From a virus: a DNA stretch of 64,000 bases. The notes under the pieces are model-generated. The model was given only the letters and a program-made list of their open reading frames with translations, searched no databases and had not been told where the DNA came from. The number at the start of each line of letters is the position of its first letter. Position 1 is the first letter of the stretch. The position numbers and the translations under genes were made by a program. The stretch is from positions 1 through 64,000 of the IMG/VR virus record IMGVR_UViG_3300023184_005116, one strand, 5' to 3'. This document shows positions 56,151 to 64,000 of the stretch, piece by piece.

Positions 56151-56741
56151 ATGAAAAATATCCAATTATACGAGCATTTTTGTATTAACGAGGCTGAAAA
56201 TGTATTCTTTACTAGACACAATCAACCTGGTAAATACAAAGATAGAGCATCAAAAACATACGGATTAACAGAAAATCCTACGGTATTACAAAAAGCTCAC
56301 AACTTCTTTAGCAAAATGGAAGACCGAATAAACAGCATGGCTGGAATCGGTAGTTCTTTGCAAAAATCAAGAAGATCTGAAAGAGGCGGAGGCCCTGATA
56401 CTGGTGTAGAGGTACTTTTTGGCTTACCTTCTGTTATACCTAACGTACTTAAAAGAGTATTTGGTCCTAGTAAATTTGAGCTTGCTAAAAAAGCACCTGC
56501 TAGCGACGATAACGTAGATTTGGAATTCATGAGACATACTAATGAAGACTTTGCTAAAAATGATCTTCCTAGTATAAGAACTGAAAAACAGCTGGAGGAT
56601 AATATTGCAGATCTTTATCAAAAAGGTAATGTTGCAAAAGGACAGGTTCCTGTTCTAGATGATATAGCAAGAAATAGAGCTACTATGTATTATACTAGAG
56701 AGTTCAACCCAGCCCAACCGGTATTACAAACAAATAACTAA
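56151..56741 (+). CDS. Hypothetical protein with capsid-targeting-like leader (putative internal head protein)
   Basis: MKNIQLYEHFCINE-A. Confidence 0.6.
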   Translation: MKNIQLYEHFCINEAENVFFTRHNQPGKYKDRASKTYGLTENPTVLQKAHNFFSKMEDRINSMAGIGSSLQKSRRSERGGGPDTGVEVLFGLPSVIPNVLKRVFGPSKFELAKKAPASDDNVDLEFMRHTNEDFAKNDLPSIRTEKQLEDNIADLYQKGNVAKGQVPVLDDIARNRATMYYTREFNPAQPVLQTNN

Positions 56742-56747
56742 TCAAAA

Positions 56748-57470
56748 ATGAAAAAATTCTCTTTAGTAGTAGAAAAGAAAAAACAAGAATTACAAGAAAA
56801 CGAATTGGTAAACGAAAGAAATCTTTACCTAGATTTTTCTAAAAAATATAACAAGGAACATGGTGTTTCTGGTCCTTTTGATAAAAAGTTCAAAGGAGAC
56901 GAAAAAGCTCAAGAGGAGTATATGGGAGGCCTTTCTAAAGCTTGGGCAGAGCACAAAAAGAAAAAAGGAATCAAAAATAAATCTGAAAAGAATTTTGATT
57001 TCAAGAAAAAAATGAACGAGTCCAAAGCATTAGATATGGCTAAAGAAATGATCGGCGACGGTGGAGAACCTAACTATCATTTTGTTACTATGTGTGATGA
57101 TTATCTTTTTGAAAAAGAAGGTGAAATGATAAAATACAGTAAGGACATTTCTTCAGCTCCTCTTAAAATTAAAACTACTCCTGATATGGGAGCTTACACA
57201 TTTGGCCCTTTCATGAATATCGAAGAGTCTAAAATGTTTGCAGAAAGTATTGAACTTGATGAAATCAATGGACCTAGAATGGTAGTTATAGAGGACAGAA
57301 AAGAAGGAGAAGTTTTTTCTAAATATCTTAGCTGTAAGCTTCAACCGGTTTGGGACGAAAACATTAGTGACAGTAGCGCATCTGATGAGGATATGGACGA
57401 CGAAGATGAATTTGAAGATCCTAATTCGGAATATACATACGGTGACGAAACTGAAGACGAAGAAGAATAA
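56748..57470 (+). CDS. Hypothetical protein, putative internal head protein with acidic tail
   Basis: MKKFSLVVE..LQENELVNE, KMNES; C-terminal DEDMDDEDEFED...ETEDEEE. Confidence 0.6.
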   Translation: MKKFSLVVEKKKQELQENELVNERNLYLDFSKKYNKEHGVSGPFDKKFKGDEKAQEEYMGGLSKAWAEHKKKKGIKNKSEKNFDFKKKMNESKALDMAKEMIGDGGEPNYHFVTMCDDYLFEKEGEMIKYSKDISSAPLKIKTTPDMGAYTFGPFMNIEESKMFAESIELDEINGPRMVVIEDRKEGEVFSKYLSCKLQPVWDENISDSSASDEDMDDEDEFEDPNSEYTYGDETEDEEE

Positions 57471-57472
57471 GA

Positions 57473-57916
57473 ATGCTAACACTATCACAAAATCTAGCTC
57501 TTTATCCGCTTTTACAGCACTATATAGGGAGTCAAGTAACCTCTATTATACCAAATCAATCTTATCTCTCTTTTAATACCTTATTAGGTGAAAGGGGAGA
57601 ACTTCGTATGGAAGATAATGGCGATTGGAGAATAATAATAGGAAGTGAAATTATAGATACAATAGAAAGTGATGTTTTTAAAACTCTTATAAGTCCAGAT
57701 GCTAAAATAAAAATAGAGGAATATCTAGATTTACTGAAATCCTTGGGTACTCAGGATAATATAAGCTATCGATCTAGAGTACTTGTTCAACAGATTCTAA
57801 AAGTTTTAGAAGATTATGTTATTAACTCTAATTATGTGCCTAAGAAAATAATAAAAGTTGGGCCTTTTATTGTTTTTAGCCACGAGGGAATAAAATTTAT
57901 AAATTGTTTAAATTAA
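57473..57916 (+). CDS. Hypothetical protein
   Basis: 147 aa ORF in the gene train. Confidence 0.6.
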   Translation: MLTLSQNLALYPLLQHYIGSQVTSIIPNQSYLSFNTLLGERGELRMEDNGDWRIIIGSEIIDTIESDVFKTLISPDAKIKIEEYLDLLKSLGTQDNISYRSRVLVQQILKVLEDYVINSNYVPKKIIKVGPFIVFSHEGIKFINCLN

Positions 57917-57920
57917 AAAA

Positions 57921-61726: not shown

Positions 61727-61747
61727 AATAGAAAATAAAAATAATCA

Positions 61748-63274
61748 ATGAAACGCATTTACAACTTTAACGAATTTGTCAACGAGGGGTATCTCGATAA
61801 AATAGGATCCACTGTAACTGGATGGATAAAATCTATGAAAGATGCTATTAAATCTGGATTAGTAAAATTAATACCTTCCGGTGCTAAAGCAGGTAAGCCA
61901 ATGGCAACTGCATTTGACCCTGATAAAGGATCAATAGAAGCTCAGCTTTTAGATTTCTTTAAAGGAACACCTTATGCTGAAATGACATCAGAAACAAATG
62001 AAGCTCAAGTTCCTTTAGCTTATCCAAAATCTGAAGACGTTTTAGACGTAAAAGAACCAGAGCTTAAAAAAATGATTAAAACTCGCCTTAAAGCAGTTTT
62101 AAAAGCTGGGGACGAAGATAATATTCAAGGAGTATTAGATGTTAAACCTATTTTTATCTTTGGAGCTCCTGGTATTGGTAAAACACAAATCGTTGCTCAA
62201 GTATGTGATGAATTAGGAAGAGAACTTTACGGTAAGCCTTTAAACTTGGCTTTTGTAGATGGTGAGTTTGCAGAACCAGTAGACTTTGCTGGTGTACCTT
62301 CAGTAGTAGACGTTGAAAATCCTAGTGATGAAAGTCCTTACGGAAAAGGTATTACTAGATCTAACGTATCTGTTAACCTTTTACCTAATGATAACGGTAG
62401 AGATAATATGGGTGGTATTCTTTTCATTGATGAGTTAAACCGTATGCCACAAGAGGTTGTTAAAGTTTTTATGAAGCTTGCACAAAGCAGAAGACTTGGA
62501 CAAACTTATAATATTCCTAATAAATGGTATATTGTAGCTGCTGGTAATAGAGCAGAAGATGATCCAAGAGAAGTTAAGCAAATGGGTACAGCTCTTAGAG
62601 ATCGTTTCTCAGTTGTTAACTTTTTACCTACAGTTGCTGGTCTAAGAAAATATATTGAAGGTGGAAGATTAAAAGATGTTGTTATTCCTGAATTATTAGA
62701 CTTTTTAGAATTCCAACAAGAATATTTCCACAACCTTGATCCTGCTAAACAAATGATTAAATATCCAACTCCTAGAGCTTGGACTGATGCTGCAATTGGA
62801 TTAAAAAGAGTTATGGACGAACTTTCTTCTGAAGGTGTAACTGAATTATCCGATAAAGATATTATTAGTGCATTTCAAGTAGAAGTAGGATATGAAGCTG
62901 CTGCTGCATTCCTAGATTTCTATAAAATTGCTAAAGAAATTCCAGTTAAAGATTTAATGCTTCCGTTCACTAACCCTGATAAAGCACCTCTTCCTGATGA
63001 TAAGAAAGATCCTAAGTCTGGAAGACCTAGAGCTGATTATGCACACGCATTACTTTCTGCTATTATCAGAAAAAGTAAAGATACTACACTTACGGATAAA
63101 GAAGTATGTAACTTTGCTTCTTATCTACAAAGAGTTAACTCTCCAGAATGGGGTAACGCTGCTATTGCAAACCTATTCAAAGAGCATACTTACTTAAGAA
63201 AAGACGCTAAAGCAATTCAATGTATCGCTCCACTAGCTGGTAAATGGGGTGCAGAACTTGGAACGGAATTATAA
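61748..63274 (+). CDS. MoxR-like AAA+ ATPase with capsid-targeting-like leader
   Basis: Walker A GAPGIGKT, Walker B ILFIDELNR, sensor AAGN, Arg finger ALRDRF, PTPRAW; leader MKRIYNFNEFVNE. Confidence 0.88.
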   Translation: MKRIYNFNEFVNEGYLDKIGSTVTGWIKSMKDAIKSGLVKLIPSGAKAGKPMATAFDPDKGSIEAQLLDFFKGTPYAEMTSETNEAQVPLAYPKSEDVLDVKEPELKKMIKTRLKAVLKAGDEDNIQGVLDVKPIFIFGAPGIGKTQIVAQVCDELGRELYGKPLNLAFVDGEFAEPVDFAGVPSVVDVENPSDESPYGKGITRSNVSVNLLPNDNGRDNMGGILFIDELNRMPQEVVKVFMKLAQSRRLGQTYNIPNKWYIVAAGNRAEDDPREVKQMGTALRDRFSVVNFLPTVAGLRKYIEGGRLKDVVIPELLDFLEFQQEYFHNLDPAKQMIKYPTPRAWTDAAIGLKRVMDELSSEGVTELSDKDIISAFQVEVGYEAAAAFLDFYKIAKEIPVKDLMLPFTNPDKAPLPDDKKDPKSGRPRADYAHALLSAIIRKSKDTTLTDKEVCNFASYLQRVNSPEWGNAAIANLFKEHTYLRKDAKAIQCIAPLAGKWGAELGTEL

Positions 63275-63279
63275 TTTGA

Positions 63280-63552
63280 ATGAAGAAGTTCAGTAAAATA
63301 CTGGAAGGTCATACCAAAAAGTATGACCTTTCTAATAGTAAGAGACTTCTAGAAGAGGCAAGAGATAGGATTGATTCGGTAAGAAAAGAATTCTCTTCCT
63401 TTGAAGATGCAGATACAACTGAACTAGAGGAAGCTTGGAATCTTATAGATAAATATCATGGTAATGTAGTTAGAGGAGAGATATTTAAGAGAAGAAAAAA
63501 AGATCAATATATCCCTAATACATCAGCTATAGTACCAAATAAAGGAAACTAA
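63280..63552 (+). CDS. Small hypothetical protein with leader-like N-terminus
   Basis: MKKFSKILE-G. Confidence 0.6.
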   Translation: MKKFSKILEGHTKKYDLSNSKRLLEEARDRIDSVRKEFSSFEDADTTELEEAWNLIDKYHGNVVRGEIFKRRKKDQYIPNTSAIVPNKGN

Positions 63553-63556
63553 AAAT

Positions 63557-64000
63557 ATGAAACATATAAAATTATTCGAACATTTCTTAAATGAAGATGG
63601 ATATGGAAGAGATTTTTTCGTAAAGGAAAAAGCAGGTAAACTGATGCAATACTTCTTCAAAATAGAAGGTGAGGAAGATGATCTAGGATTTGTAGTTTCT
63701 CTTGGTAAGCTATCAAGAAATACTAATATAGAATCTGCTGAAAATAGTTATGCAGTTCTTTCCGTAGAGCCAATTAAAGAAGCTGTAATGGACGATTATC
63801 TCGTTAAAGACTCTGATTTTAAGTCAAGAGAAGATGATGTGTTTACGCTTACTAAATCGGAGTTTATGCGCTTTTATAAGATAGCTGGAGAGTGTATAAA
63901 AGACTATTTACAAAGCAATCCTAAGGTAACTTTTATATACGACGAAATGCCATTAAATATAGATATGGATTTTGATGATTATAAATCAAATGTTAAGAGT
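63557..64000 (+). CDS. 5' part of a gene running off the window; capsid-targeting-like leader
   Basis: ATG at 63557 opens MKHIKLFEHFLNEDGYGRDFFVKEK..., open to the window end; absent from the ORF track. Confidence 0.75.
   Translation, partial: MKHIKLFEHFLNEDGYGRDFFVKEKAGKLMQYFFKIEGEEDDLGFVVSLGKLSRNTNIESAENSYAVLSVEPIKEAVMDDYLVKDSDFKSREDDVFTLTKSEFMRFYKIAGECIKDYLQSNPKVTFIYDEMPLNIDMDFDDYKSNVKS

Follow-up and report, generated by a model that had tools for sequence, protein, structure and literature searches.

The window analysed here, a stretch of 64,000 nucleotides, belongs to a 103-kb contig (G000) of an uncultured lake jumbo phage in which many unrelated proteins have a common N-terminal tag of 13 residues, with the consensus M-[KR]-x-I-x-x-[FYW]-x-x-F-h-(x)-x-E. 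Six ORFs in the last 8 kb of the window had been described, in a sequence-only reading of this DNA, as starting alike and as forming a single island of genes for ejected proteins. In each of the six, the N-terminus lies at the coordinate given in the table below and the start is the first possible start codon.

Features of the locus. Arrows mark the predicted cleavage position.
Feature	Position	Strand	Remarks
Promoter-like A/T octamer GATATATA	56122..56129	+	21 nt upstream of 56151
Leader MKNIQLYEHFCINE	56151..56192	+	Variant; N-E preceded by one additional residue (…YEHFCINE)
Leader-bearing protein, 196 aa	56151..56741	+	Function unknown; candidate cargo
Protein of 240 aa, start MKKFSLVVE	56748..57470	+	Acidic C-terminus; not supported as carrier
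Promoter-like octamer GATATATA	59889..59896	+	14 nt upstream of 59911
Leader MRRILGWNDFKLFE	59911..59952	+	Variant with one extra residue (…WNDFKLFE)
DUF2201_N putative metallopeptidase, leader-bearing	59911..60600	+	HEIMH motif; Pfam PF13203, E = 1.3e-20
VWA-like DUF2201 protein without leader	60604..61716	+	Pfam PF09967, E = 2.1e-17
Promoter-like octamer GATATATA	61718..61725	+	22 nt upstream of 61748
Canonical leader MKRIYNFNEFVNE, then ↓G	61748..61786	+	23.3 bits
MoxR-type AAA+ ATPase	61748..63274	+	Leader-initiated, clade-specific N-terminal extension of ~130 aa
Protein of 90 aa, start MKKFSKILE	63280..63552	+	Not supported as carrier
Canonical leader MKHIKLFEHFLNE, then ↓DGYGR	63557..63595	+	25.6 bits, the top score of the genome
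Leader-bearing protein, 177 aa	63557..64000	+	Continues past the window to 64090
Further carriers beyond the window	64083, 66312, 75122, 78023, 81435, 86591; 73251		73251 doubtful

The strict core expression of the leader, [ILVMF]xx[FYW]xx[FY][ILVMFC]xE, occurs six times at N-termini and four times internally in G000, a difference in rate of about 60-fold, and shuffled N-termini of this contig yield a mean of 0.09; in the relative LR756500 the N-terminal rate likewise exceeds the internal one about 60-fold and lies far above shuffles. A profile scan, a check proposed in the sequence-only reading, used a scoring matrix built only from independent IMG/VR leaders (null maximum 3.5 bits) and also finds the leader to be specific to N-termini. 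By profile scores and orthologues the likeness among the six ORFs stands for 56151, 59911, 61748 and 63557 and falls for the two that start with MKKFS. The leader of 56151 reaches 0.7 bits, which exceeds the 99.8th percentile of the null, and is retained by its orthologues (MRNIKEYRDFCINE↓S, MNNIKTYKDFILNE↓S and MSKIFKYSEFILE↓Y); the protein itself has no Pfam or PHROG match and no homologue in LR756500. Both MKKFS ORFs were rejected as carriers at background-level scores, with 12% (56748) and 16% (63280) of null blocks scoring as high. The orthologues of 56748 conserve the N-terminus only about as well as the body, the orthologue of 63280 begins MKKYSHIKE, and none of G023, G006, LR756500 and T4 has a further case of the short form MKK[FY]S-x-[IV]-x-E.

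Carriers are not confined to one 8-kb island. Ten secure carriers and a doubtful adenylate kinase are spread over 56–88 kb of the 103-kb contig, seven of them (including the doubtful one) outside the window, and they are intermixed with replication and nucleotide-metabolism genes. The companion claim that replication and baseplate genes themselves do not begin with the leader is borne out for 1–56 kb, where no ORF starts in this way. A set of 37 carriers represents 29 unrelated body families, and the leader is portable between unrelated bodies. The most enriched upstream 7-mer is ATATATA, found before 7/11 leader genes and 10/101 others in G000 (Fisher p = 1.2e-4). Tail and baseplate genes have this motif in common with the leader genes in G000, and in G006 it also precedes the portal and protease-scaffold genes; the leader genes of G006 are not individually enriched for it (4/20, p = 0.32).

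The leader is virus-specific and widespread, with matches in at least 120 IMG/VR stretches, none in IMG/VR for the reversed control pattern, and only 16 in 596 Gb of prokaryote genomes. The residue following the terminal Glu is A, S or G in 63/101 cases. Could the conservation reside in the DNA, the peptide being the by-product of an operator or enhancer of translation that spans the start codon, or of a recombination site for cassette exchange? The element does overlap the start codon and is A/T-rich, and the leader genes of G006 do cluster in an island. However, every conserved residue is encoded by a mixture of synonymous codons (F10 TTT 57/TTC 29; N12 AAT 52/AAC 34; H3 CAT 21/CAC 27), distinct DNAs with an identical leader peptide differ by a mean of 3.5 nt, and the copies within G000 also differ synonymously from one another. 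This free variation largely refutes a nucleic-acid element, which we regard as hardly credible; the leader is selected as a peptide.

The genes at 59911–63274 form a MoxR/VWA/DUF2201 cassette in which the leader is set in front of recognizable enzymes. The leader of 59911 is an N-terminal add-on, because the DUF2201_N domain begins only at residue 46; the orthologue in LR756500 starts MKYIKSYENFIFE↓N and closer orthologues start MKKILSFKDFSLYE↓Y. The VWA-like ORF at 60604 follows in the same frame after a TAA-AAA-ATG junction, and the LR756500 counterparts of both genes are one fused, leader-bearing protein. In the MoxR carrier, a protein of 508 aa, the Pfam AAA_5 domain occupies residues 135–287, the alignment to phrog_1297 starts at residue 133, and homologues in cultured phages align only from residue 105–136 onward. 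Its G023 orthologue begins MKRIANFNEFVNE↓GYLEKIG and is 93% identical over the first 14 residues and 62% over the remainder, and the LR756500 orthologue preserves the …ELNE↓G junction. As in the MoxR AAA+/VWA/DUF2201 metallopeptidase systems of bacteria and phages (e.g., N4-like and rV5-like), PF13203, PF09967 and AAA_5 are found in adjacent genes; unlike in those systems, the peptidase and the ATPase are each leader-tagged in the phage clade, and the ATPase has its unique extension. Some close relatives lack the cassette at this locus.

The highest-scoring leader, at 63557, belongs to a family with 38 aligned members in which E8 and E13 never vary and H3, L6 and F10 hardly do. In an AlphaFold2 model of this protein (pLDDT 86, pTM 0.84) the leader lies outside the fold, residues 11–17 are below pLDDT 50, and order is lowest at the …NE↓DG junction. 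Foldseek TM-scores do not exceed 0.40, the highest VIA Z is 6.8, and GNAT-family chains make up most of the top 50; the well-modelled body looks weakly GNAT-like. The bodies of the carriers evolve faster than their neighbours, in analogy to the internal proteins of T4: their identity is 65% compared to 77% for neighbouring genes (p = 0.006), while orthologues retain the leader. At the G000/G023 distance, conservation of the leader is not significantly above that of the bodies (p = 0.12), and in LR756500 most carriers are without a homologue.

The G000 contig has no head module, and the argument from head machinery rests on relatives because the head protease and capsid genes do not lie on this contig. 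A gp21-type protease (Peptidase_S77) is present in 19/25 large leader-bearing contigs, in 3/3 of those at least 90% complete, and in G013, a relative collinear with G000 (median identity 72%); the expected gp21-like enzyme is found in the clade and not on G000 itself. In the relatives the protease conserves the catalytic His85 and Ser140 and is fused to a scaffold whose tail is enriched in [ILV]xE (27 observed vs 13.2 expected in G006; 20 vs 9.4 in LR756500), and these genomes also encode a capsid protein of the gp23 type and a late sigma factor of the gp55 type. The anticipated x-N-E site in the capsid protein occurs as [LI]-N-E↓[AS] at the N-terminus in 13/16 clade members, and the closest relative, G013, departs from it with LLNQ↓S. 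In G006, L153, L154 and L156, a conserved leader ORF of ~120 aa lies between portal and protease, the position of T4 genes 67 and 68.

We consider it probable that the 13–14-residue leader is a T4-type capsid-targeting propeptide. The two aromatics three apart, together with the preceding Ile, would attach to the scaffolding core while the prohead assembles; in this clade the scaffold is fused to the gp21-type protease. The tagged protein would thereby be trapped within the shell. Cleavage after the terminal Glu (…F-[ILV]-N-E↓[ASG]) would then free the mature protein inside the head, from where it would exit with the DNA at the next infection. We infer core binding, cleavage, presence in the virion and ejection into the host from these comparisons, and the notion of an ejected payload is pure inference. 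If this is correct, the window encodes four cargo proteins and the whole contig at least ten, with the MoxR AAA+ ATPase and the metallopeptidase subunit of its VWA partner among those of the window. T4 packages the 76-kDa Alt and large fusion proteins, and therefore packaging of large oligomeric enzymes such as the MoxR ATPase seems plausible by analogy. Counted against the propeptide were these large oligomeric enzymes among the carriers, the lack of head genes on the G000 contig, the co-occurrence of ClpP with leaders in the clade, the PTm1 head module without leaders (see below), the capsid protein of G013 without [LI]-N-E, the ATATATA result in G006, and the comparison of leader with body at p = 0.12.

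The leader ORF in the head module would also suit cargo that is targeted to the prohead and cleaved there but serves as internal head or core components, such as proteins that assist assembly, condense the DNA or are broken down in the manner of scaffold, and several processed T4 proteins indeed belong to the core and are destroyed without ever being ejected (PMC9026906). We find this unlikely, as enzymes without an obvious structural role carry the leader (the MoxR ATPase, the metallopeptidase, a second MoxR and the weakly GNAT-like protein, and ATP-grasp ligases in three contigs), and the diverse, fast-evolving and variably present bodies follow the pattern of the injected internal proteins of T4, unlike conserved core proteins.

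The same ORF between portal and protease bears on two readings that place the leader outside the capsid. In one, it would be an N-terminal degradation tag that delivers proteins to a phage ClpP-like protease with a host unfoldase for timed turnover. A ClpP-like protein is encoded at 90905–91636 in G000, and ClpP is found in G006, G023 and LR756500 too, a phyletic pattern compatible with such a tag, but ClpP is common in large phages anyway. To our knowledge, the leader is unlike known Clp N-terminal degrons. A degradation tag accounts neither for the leader-bearing ORF of the head module nor for the T4-like 4/7/8/10 layout with its conserved Glu and small residue, and we judge it very improbable.

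In the other, the leader would be a small amphipathic peptide that mediates an interaction or localises its protein elsewhere, e.g., at a site of replication or assembly organised by the phage, at a membrane, or with a chaperone (the MoxR/VWA system, for instance), and its likeness to T4 would be convergent. A generic aromatic/acidic motif of ~10 residues and the setting of the carriers among replication and nucleotide-metabolism genes fit such a role, as does Tenacibaculum phage PTm1 (Shirahamavirus), in which the head module functions in the absence of leaders. By its capsid protein (35% identity), PTm1 is the nearest cultured relative identified. It has the same order of portal, small ORF, protease-scaffold fusion (under the annotation 'prohead core scaffolding protein and protease') and gp23-type capsid protein, and no leader-bearing proteins; its single match is off-register, where the null gives 0.22. 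Because PTm1 has the module without leaders, the leader system is an accessory of a subclade that is not implied by the protease or head type, and the PTm1 virion proteome is unusable as a test. Nevertheless, we hold a non-capsid destination to be quite unlikely: it leaves unexplained the conserved terminal h-N-E with its small residue, the leader ORF between portal and protease, and the co-occurrence with an h-x-E-rich scaffold. The chaperone variant also meets L203 and L204, which have leader proteins while the cassette is absent from the corresponding locus.

Returning to the capsid-targeting propeptide, two groups of known systems invite comparison. The giant phages phiKZ, 201phi2-1 and SPN3US are likewise jumbo phages; their gp21-related protease (gp175/gp245) cleaves C-terminal to Glu, and they have many head-internal ejection proteins, enzymes included (PMC5694885, PMC10052503). 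Their cleavage motifs are S/A/G-x-E or A-x-E, with a small residue at P3 where the clade leader has a hydrophobic one, and their propeptides mostly exceed 100 residues, with no shared consensus leader described in these studies (PMC5694885, PMC10052503). These giant phages offer no common sequence tag for cargo prediction, whereas in the phage studied here the packaged protein cargo is probably predictable from sequence.

The closest parallel is T4. Its CTS reportedly goes back to work of Mullaney and Black in 1996. The T4 proteins IPII and IPIII begin MKTYQEFIAE↓A, Alt begins MELITELFDE↓D and gp24 begins MAKINELLRE↓S, and the strict leader expression selects ipII and ipIII in T4. The gp21 prohead protease removes the CTS from IPI, IPII and IPIII as well as the N-terminal propeptides from Alt and gp24 (PMC9026906, PMC3012670); the members of its family all cleave after Glu (PMC5694885), and published mutagenesis assigns residues 4 and 7 to targeting and residues 8 and 10 to processing (PMC9026906). 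The parallel drawn in the sequence-only reading is well founded: both leaders have the aromatic-x-x-aromatic-hydrophobic-x-Glu core, and Y-Q-E-F-I-A-E↓A of T4 corresponds to F-E-Q-F-I-N-E↓A of the clade in the hydrophobic/aromatic pair three apart, the hydrophobic-x-Glu and the small residue that follows. In both, a short N-terminal peptide joins otherwise unrelated, diverse and fast-evolving cargo, and the lineages have in common a Ser/His protease of the gp21 type, together with a capsid protein, portal and late sigma factor of the gp23, gp20 and gp55 types, respectively. The clade leader differs in its length (13–14 residues compared to 10), in one more conserved turn (M-K-H-I-K-L) ahead of the first aromatic, and in Asn at P2; the protease of the clade is fused to the scaffold, and the function of the leader here is a predicted one. 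Unlike in T4, the carriers include large enzymes (MoxR AAA+, metallopeptidase and ATP-grasp ligases), and where T4 tags a handful of proteins, the clade tags ~6–10% of its ORFs, 20/336 in the complete G006 and 10–11/112 in G000.

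A leader-like start of the form M-[KR]-x-I-x-x-[FYW]-x-x-F-h-(x)-x-E (h, hydrophobic) is found by a simple expression on 11 of the 112 ORFs of G000, the whole contig that contains the window, all of them within 56–88 kb. The six N-termini listed in the sequence-only reading are all as it gave them, each beginning at the earliest start codon that its ORF allows, and the observation is partly confirmed: ORFs 56151, 59911, 61748 and 63557 (named by start position) stand as carriers, whereas 56748 and 63280 score at background and their short form does not recur. We scanned the genome with a profile of the leaders, grading the G000 ORFs with a matrix built from independent IMG/VR leaders only, and found the leader to be specific to N-termini. 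It is absent from the structural and UvsW part of G000 (0 ORFs in the simple-expression scan), as that reading had held, but the proposed genomic island does not stand, the carriers being dispersed over approximately 32 kb instead. A second, shorter leader class made up of the two MKKFS ORFs is rejected, as this form is absent from the leader-bearing relatives G023, G006 and LR756500 and from T4. The adenylate kinase reaches only the 98.4th percentile (equalled or exceeded by 1.6% of null blocks), and the N-terminal extension of its G023 orthologue differs.

Coordinates of the leader carriers and associated features
Feature	Record	Position	Remark
Part under study	G000	56-64 kb	within the window
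Canonical carriers	G000	61748, 63557, 64083, 75122, 86591	18-26 bits (null maximum 3.5)
Significant carriers	G000	78023, 56151	above 99.8th percentile of null
Variant carriers	G000	81435, 66312, 59911	rescued via orthologues
Doubtful carrier	G000	73251	adenylate kinase, without h-x-E site
Background-level ORFs	G000	56748, 63280	MKKFS…; short form in no other genome examined
Tail and baseplate module	G000	6-54 kb	
UvsW-like gene	G000	54589-56115	508 aa
Metallopeptidase/VWA/MoxR trio	G000	59911-63274	
(G/A)ATATATA sites	G000	5022-5029, 32195-32202, 44457-44464, 56122-56129, 59889-59896, 61718-61725, further to 92155	13 forward, 1 reverse
ClpP-like gene	G000	90905-91636	
Leader-gene island	G006	193196-200277	L177-L178
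Proteins beside head genes	G013	12090-23140	L234-L235
Second MoxR and DUF2201 pair	G023	160-163 kb	
C-terminal-motif ORFs (examples)	LR756500.1	11706, 13446, 15074, 124308, 180972, 197835, 198758, 313382, 331856	L012-L021
Short helicase and extra ORFs	L202	584-3364	
Short helicase and extra ORFs	L203	529-3320	
Gene 61.1	NC_000866	18966-19130	54 aa, annotated hypothetical

G000 is an IMG/VR phage record of 102,757 bp and 33% GC, of which the window is the first 64 kb, and CheckV puts its completeness at approximately 34%. The tail and baseplate module is followed by UvsY- and UvsW-like genes, and this whole stretch matches LR756500.1, a "huge phage" record of 462 kb, in collinear order. A protein identical to that of ORF 63557-64090 (P0001) is on record on a contig of 320,792 bp, which is probably a near-complete assembly of the same phage; its size fits the CheckV estimate of approximately 300 kb.

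At what level is the leader maintained? The strict core [ILVMF]xx[FYW]xx[FY][ILVMFC]xE occurs six times at N-termini of G000 versus four times among approximately 30,000 internal positions, an enrichment of approximately 60-fold, and shuffled N-termini give a mean of 0.09 matches; LR756500 has 22 N-terminal and 11 internal matches, with a shuffle mean of 0.57. The leader is a portable add-on to unrelated protein bodies, and the 37 carriers of G000 and LR756500, once their first 16 residues are trimmed, form 29 families without mutual BLASTP similarity. It is also selected as a peptide. Codons vary synonymously among the G000 copies, both synonymous codons occur at each conserved residue among 86 distinct leader DNAs, and DNAs that encode one and the same 13-mer differ by a mean of 3.5 positions; an element acting at the RNA or DNA level is rejected by this synonymous-codon analysis. 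Finally, the leader is widespread and virus-specific. With a back-translated pattern of approximately 40 bits, at least 120 stretches match in IMG/VR, often two to three per locus, and the same pattern written backwards has no match there; prokaryotes (185,579 species, one genome each) give 16 single matches, and several of these, in Bacteroidota MAGs, have the look of phage contigs that were mis-binned. Among the matches listed, 101 IMG/VR ORFs yield the consensus MKHIKLFEQF(I/V)NE, in which the free positions of the pattern are conserved as well, and in 63 of them a small residue (Ala, Ser or Gly) follows the leader Glu. We found no description of such a leader in huge phages in the literature searched.

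The N-termini of T4 proteins, read from NC_000866, allow a direct comparison (↓, cut in T4 or corresponding position): IPII and IPIII start with MKTYQEFIAE↓A, IPI with MKTFKEF…ITE↓A, Alt with MELITELFDE↓D and gp24 with MAKINELLRE↓S. In the T4 capsid targeting sequence (CTS), residues 4 and 7 serve mainly for targeting and residues 8 and 10 for processing, and the first 10 residues of IPIII are enough for packaging (PMC9026906). Internal proteins of T-even phages are diverse, and the CTS is the sole sequence that they have in common (PMC9026906; see also PMC3012670); cleavage after Glu is shared by the proteases of T4, phiKZ, 201phi2-1 and SPN3US (PMC5694885). The core of the leader has the same layout as the CTS, namely an aromatic residue, two residues, an aromatic and a hydrophobic residue, one residue, Glu and a small residue, and it differs in that one extra conserved turn precedes the core. 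This core with T4 spacing occurs in G000, LR756500, G006, G023 and G013 and in the 101 IMG/VR ORFs. Two features of T4-type propeptides are thus seen: a short N-terminal peptide (10–20 aa) common to unrelated proteins, and two targeting residues three apart followed by hydrophobic-x-Glu. As a separate observation, T4 gene 61.1, which is not among the known internal-protein genes, starts with the perfectly CTS-like MKTFKEFIKE↓D.

T4-type head machinery is found in the relatives. G000 itself, at its degree of completeness, holds no gene for Peptidase_S77, the family of the T4 prohead protease gp21, and no clear Gp23 gene. In LR756500, a Peptidase_S77 domain (44.8 bits) opens a 632 aa protein with a repeat-rich, scaffold-like remainder, and the gene adjoins a Gp23-type capsid gene. 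The protease is present in 19 of the 25 leader-bearing IMG/VR contigs of at least 100 kb, always within an ORF of 577–816 aa; it occurs in all three leader contigs that are at least 90% complete, and the six contigs without it are at most 67% complete. It is also present in the collinear relative G013, which shares 60 ORFs with G000 in the same order at a median identity of 72%. There, the region corresponding to the start of the window is immediately preceded by genes for a portal-like protein, a 678 aa protease-scaffold and a 572 aa capsid protein, so G000 probably breaks off right after its own head module. The protease of the clade conserves the residues aligned to T4 His85 and Ser140, the two catalytic positions, both of which are Ala in the crystallised T4 construct 5JBL. 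Scaffold tails with sites of the matching type occur in the relatives, seen as site enrichment and not as observed degradation: in G006, a complete 256 kb relative, the tail has 27 [ILV]-x-E where its composition predicts 13.2, a density that no other protein of the proteome reaches, and LR756500 has 20 versus 9.4 (97th percentile). The capsid N-terminus, M-A-N-L-I-N-E↓A-E-I…P-I-I-E↓S, offers two candidate cut sites. Of 16 genomes, 13 have the first, which is of the x-N-E type anticipated for the capsid, and 15 have the second; in the closest relative, G013, LLNQ↓S stands in place of the first.

Proteins beside the head genes of G013 carry short N-terminal segments ending in hydrophobic-x-E↓S, including …GGSNPIFE↓S (an 843 aa portal-like protein), …GYNPVFE↓S and …ISLLE↓S, together with MKSIKKLNEFGSLNE↓G; these segments suggest further N-terminal propeptides besides the canonical leader. 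The leader itself also enters the head module. Between the portal and protease genes, G006 and the loci L153, L154 and L156 of relatives have a conserved ORF of approximately 120 aa that opens with it (MKKLIKTFEQFIFE↓A, MKYVKLFEQFIKE, MKIYNTFESFIKE↓A), in the position that the prohead-core genes 67 and 68 hold in T4. Tenacibaculum phage PTm1, which among cultured phages is the closest relative found, shares this head module and has no leaders, so that the leader system is an accessory of a subclade and PTm1 is set aside as a source of proteomic evidence; we found no cultured phage with the leader.

Leader genes may further share their time of expression with structural genes. ATATATA is the top-enriched upstream 7-mer in G000, LR756500 and G006, and in G000 it precedes 7 of 11 leader genes versus 10 of 101 others (p = 1.2e-4); five of these ten are tail or baseplate genes and none are recognisable replication genes. 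In G006 it stands upstream of the portal, the protease-scaffold and several very large structural genes. The leader genes of G006 are not individually enriched (4 of 20, not significant), because 13 of them crowd one island of 7 kb. In this stretch the small leader genes are consecutive, making it a true leader-gene island, unlike the dispersed carriers of G000, and it resembles the variable internal-protein loci of T-even phages. The (G/A)ATATATA sites lie 4–22 nt upstream of start codons, a very short spacing that implies near-leaderless mRNAs. The clade has a gp55-type late sigma factor (phrog_234, E = 7e-13), for which (G/A)ATATATA is probably the late promoter, analogous to TATAAATA of T4.

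What might the leader carry? Most carriers have no match in Pfam or PHROGs, and most of those in G000 have no homologue in LR756500. One exception is a trio of neighbouring genes for a MoxR ATPase, a VWA-like DUF2201 protein and a DUF2201_N domain with an HExxH motif, HEIMH in the translation (PF07728, E = 2.7e-10; PF09967, E = 2.1e-17; PF13203, E = 1.3e-20). The peptidase and the ATPase are the leader carriers of the trio. Their domains begin outside the leader, DUF2201_N at residue 46 and AAA_5 of MoxR at residue 135, and MoxR homologues of cultured phages align only from approximately residue 105–136 onward. In LR756500, the DUF2201_N peptidase is fused to its VWA partner and retains the leader. 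Stop-codon recoding at 59911/60604 is rejected; a plain TAA-AAA-ATG split is present, and translation with table 11 leaves the long structural ORFs uninterrupted. The trio occupies the same locus in G000, L197, L201 and L202 and is missing from L203 and L204, where an RNA-ligase-like gene is directly followed by orthologues of 63280 or 63557. G023 has a second MoxR and DUF2201 pair elsewhere, and the trio looks like an accessory, duplicable cassette. Further leader-bearing enzymes are a second MoxR in G023 and ATP-grasp ligases in three unrelated contigs.

Bodies of leader proteins are 65% identical between G000 and G023, versus 77% for neighbouring genes (p = 0.006), and core enzymes reach 88–95%. 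The motif is kept in all eight secure orthologues on the G023 contig, and in the G000/G023 pairs the leader is not significantly better conserved than the body (p = 0.12). The AlphaFold2 model of ORF 63557 (38 homologues; pLDDT 86) is confident except for the first ~20 residues, and the junction, residues 11–17 (…LNE↓DGYG), is disordered with pLDDT below 50, an indirect hint at the predicted removal of the leader after Glu. Its body has no Pfam match and seems weakly GNAT-like: Foldseek gives E values of 4e-3 or worse with TM-scores of at most 0.40, and the best hits in VIA, mostly GNAT chains, reach Z 6.8, under the tool's stated reliability level of ~8.

Two further observations come from relatives. 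Nine leader proteins of LR756500.1, in two BLAST families of seven and two members, end exactly or to within a few residues in a conserved …(N)A(D/T)(D/E)FGFFDN. This C-terminus could act as another signal or propeptide; C-terminal processing also occurs in T4 Alt and gp21. In L202 and L203, the UvsW-like helicase ORF is only ~331–337 aa long, and two extra ORFs (289 and 312 aa) come after it, in a place where a single gene stands in G000; the split may reflect an intein or homing-endonuclease insertion.

How should the leader be read? The T4-like interpretation is partly supported: the layout of the core and the head machinery of the relatives agree with it, the carriers are dispersed, and the incomplete contig G000 does not include a head module. 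Judged from sequence comparison, the leader is rather likely to be a T4-type capsid-targeting propeptide, for which binding, cleavage, packaging and ejection are predicted. Alternatively, it could mark proteins for degradation. ClpP co-occurs with leaders in the clade, which keeps this alternative alive at a low probability: the ClpP-like gene of G000 is conserved in G006 (190 bits) and present in two copies each in G023 and LR756500, but ClpP is found in all fuller relatives and its phyletic pattern is therefore uninformative as a discriminator. The better-scoring copy of LR756500 contains an in-frame TAA. Returning to the capsid-targeting propeptide, we propose more tentatively that in an uncultured aquatic jumbo clade, probably of Bacteroidota hosts, one universal 13-residue address, MKHIKLFEQFINE↓A, may load dozens of unrelated proteins into the capsid. 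These would make up ~6–10% of the proteome and include many enzymes, among them the whole MoxR AAA+/VWA/metallopeptidase machine, ATP-grasp ligases and GNAT-like proteins.

Provided that the leader acts as its T4 counterpart does, sequence alone would suffice to list the proteins delivered before gene expression in a large uncultured group. Such pre-packaged proteins typically serve in anti-defence and host takeover, and the list would amount to a focused catalogue of candidate effectors, mostly without assigned function; it would also raise the question of the role of a pre-packaged AAA+/VWA/peptidase machine on entry. A truly universal address would make the injected proteome of thousands of uncultured phages readable and provide a ready-made packaging handle. 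Relative to the known T4 mechanism, the leader is notable for its scale and for enzymes as candidate cargo, and a T4-like function would mean that the classic mechanism, which serves a handful of proteins in T4, can take in several per cent of a proteome.
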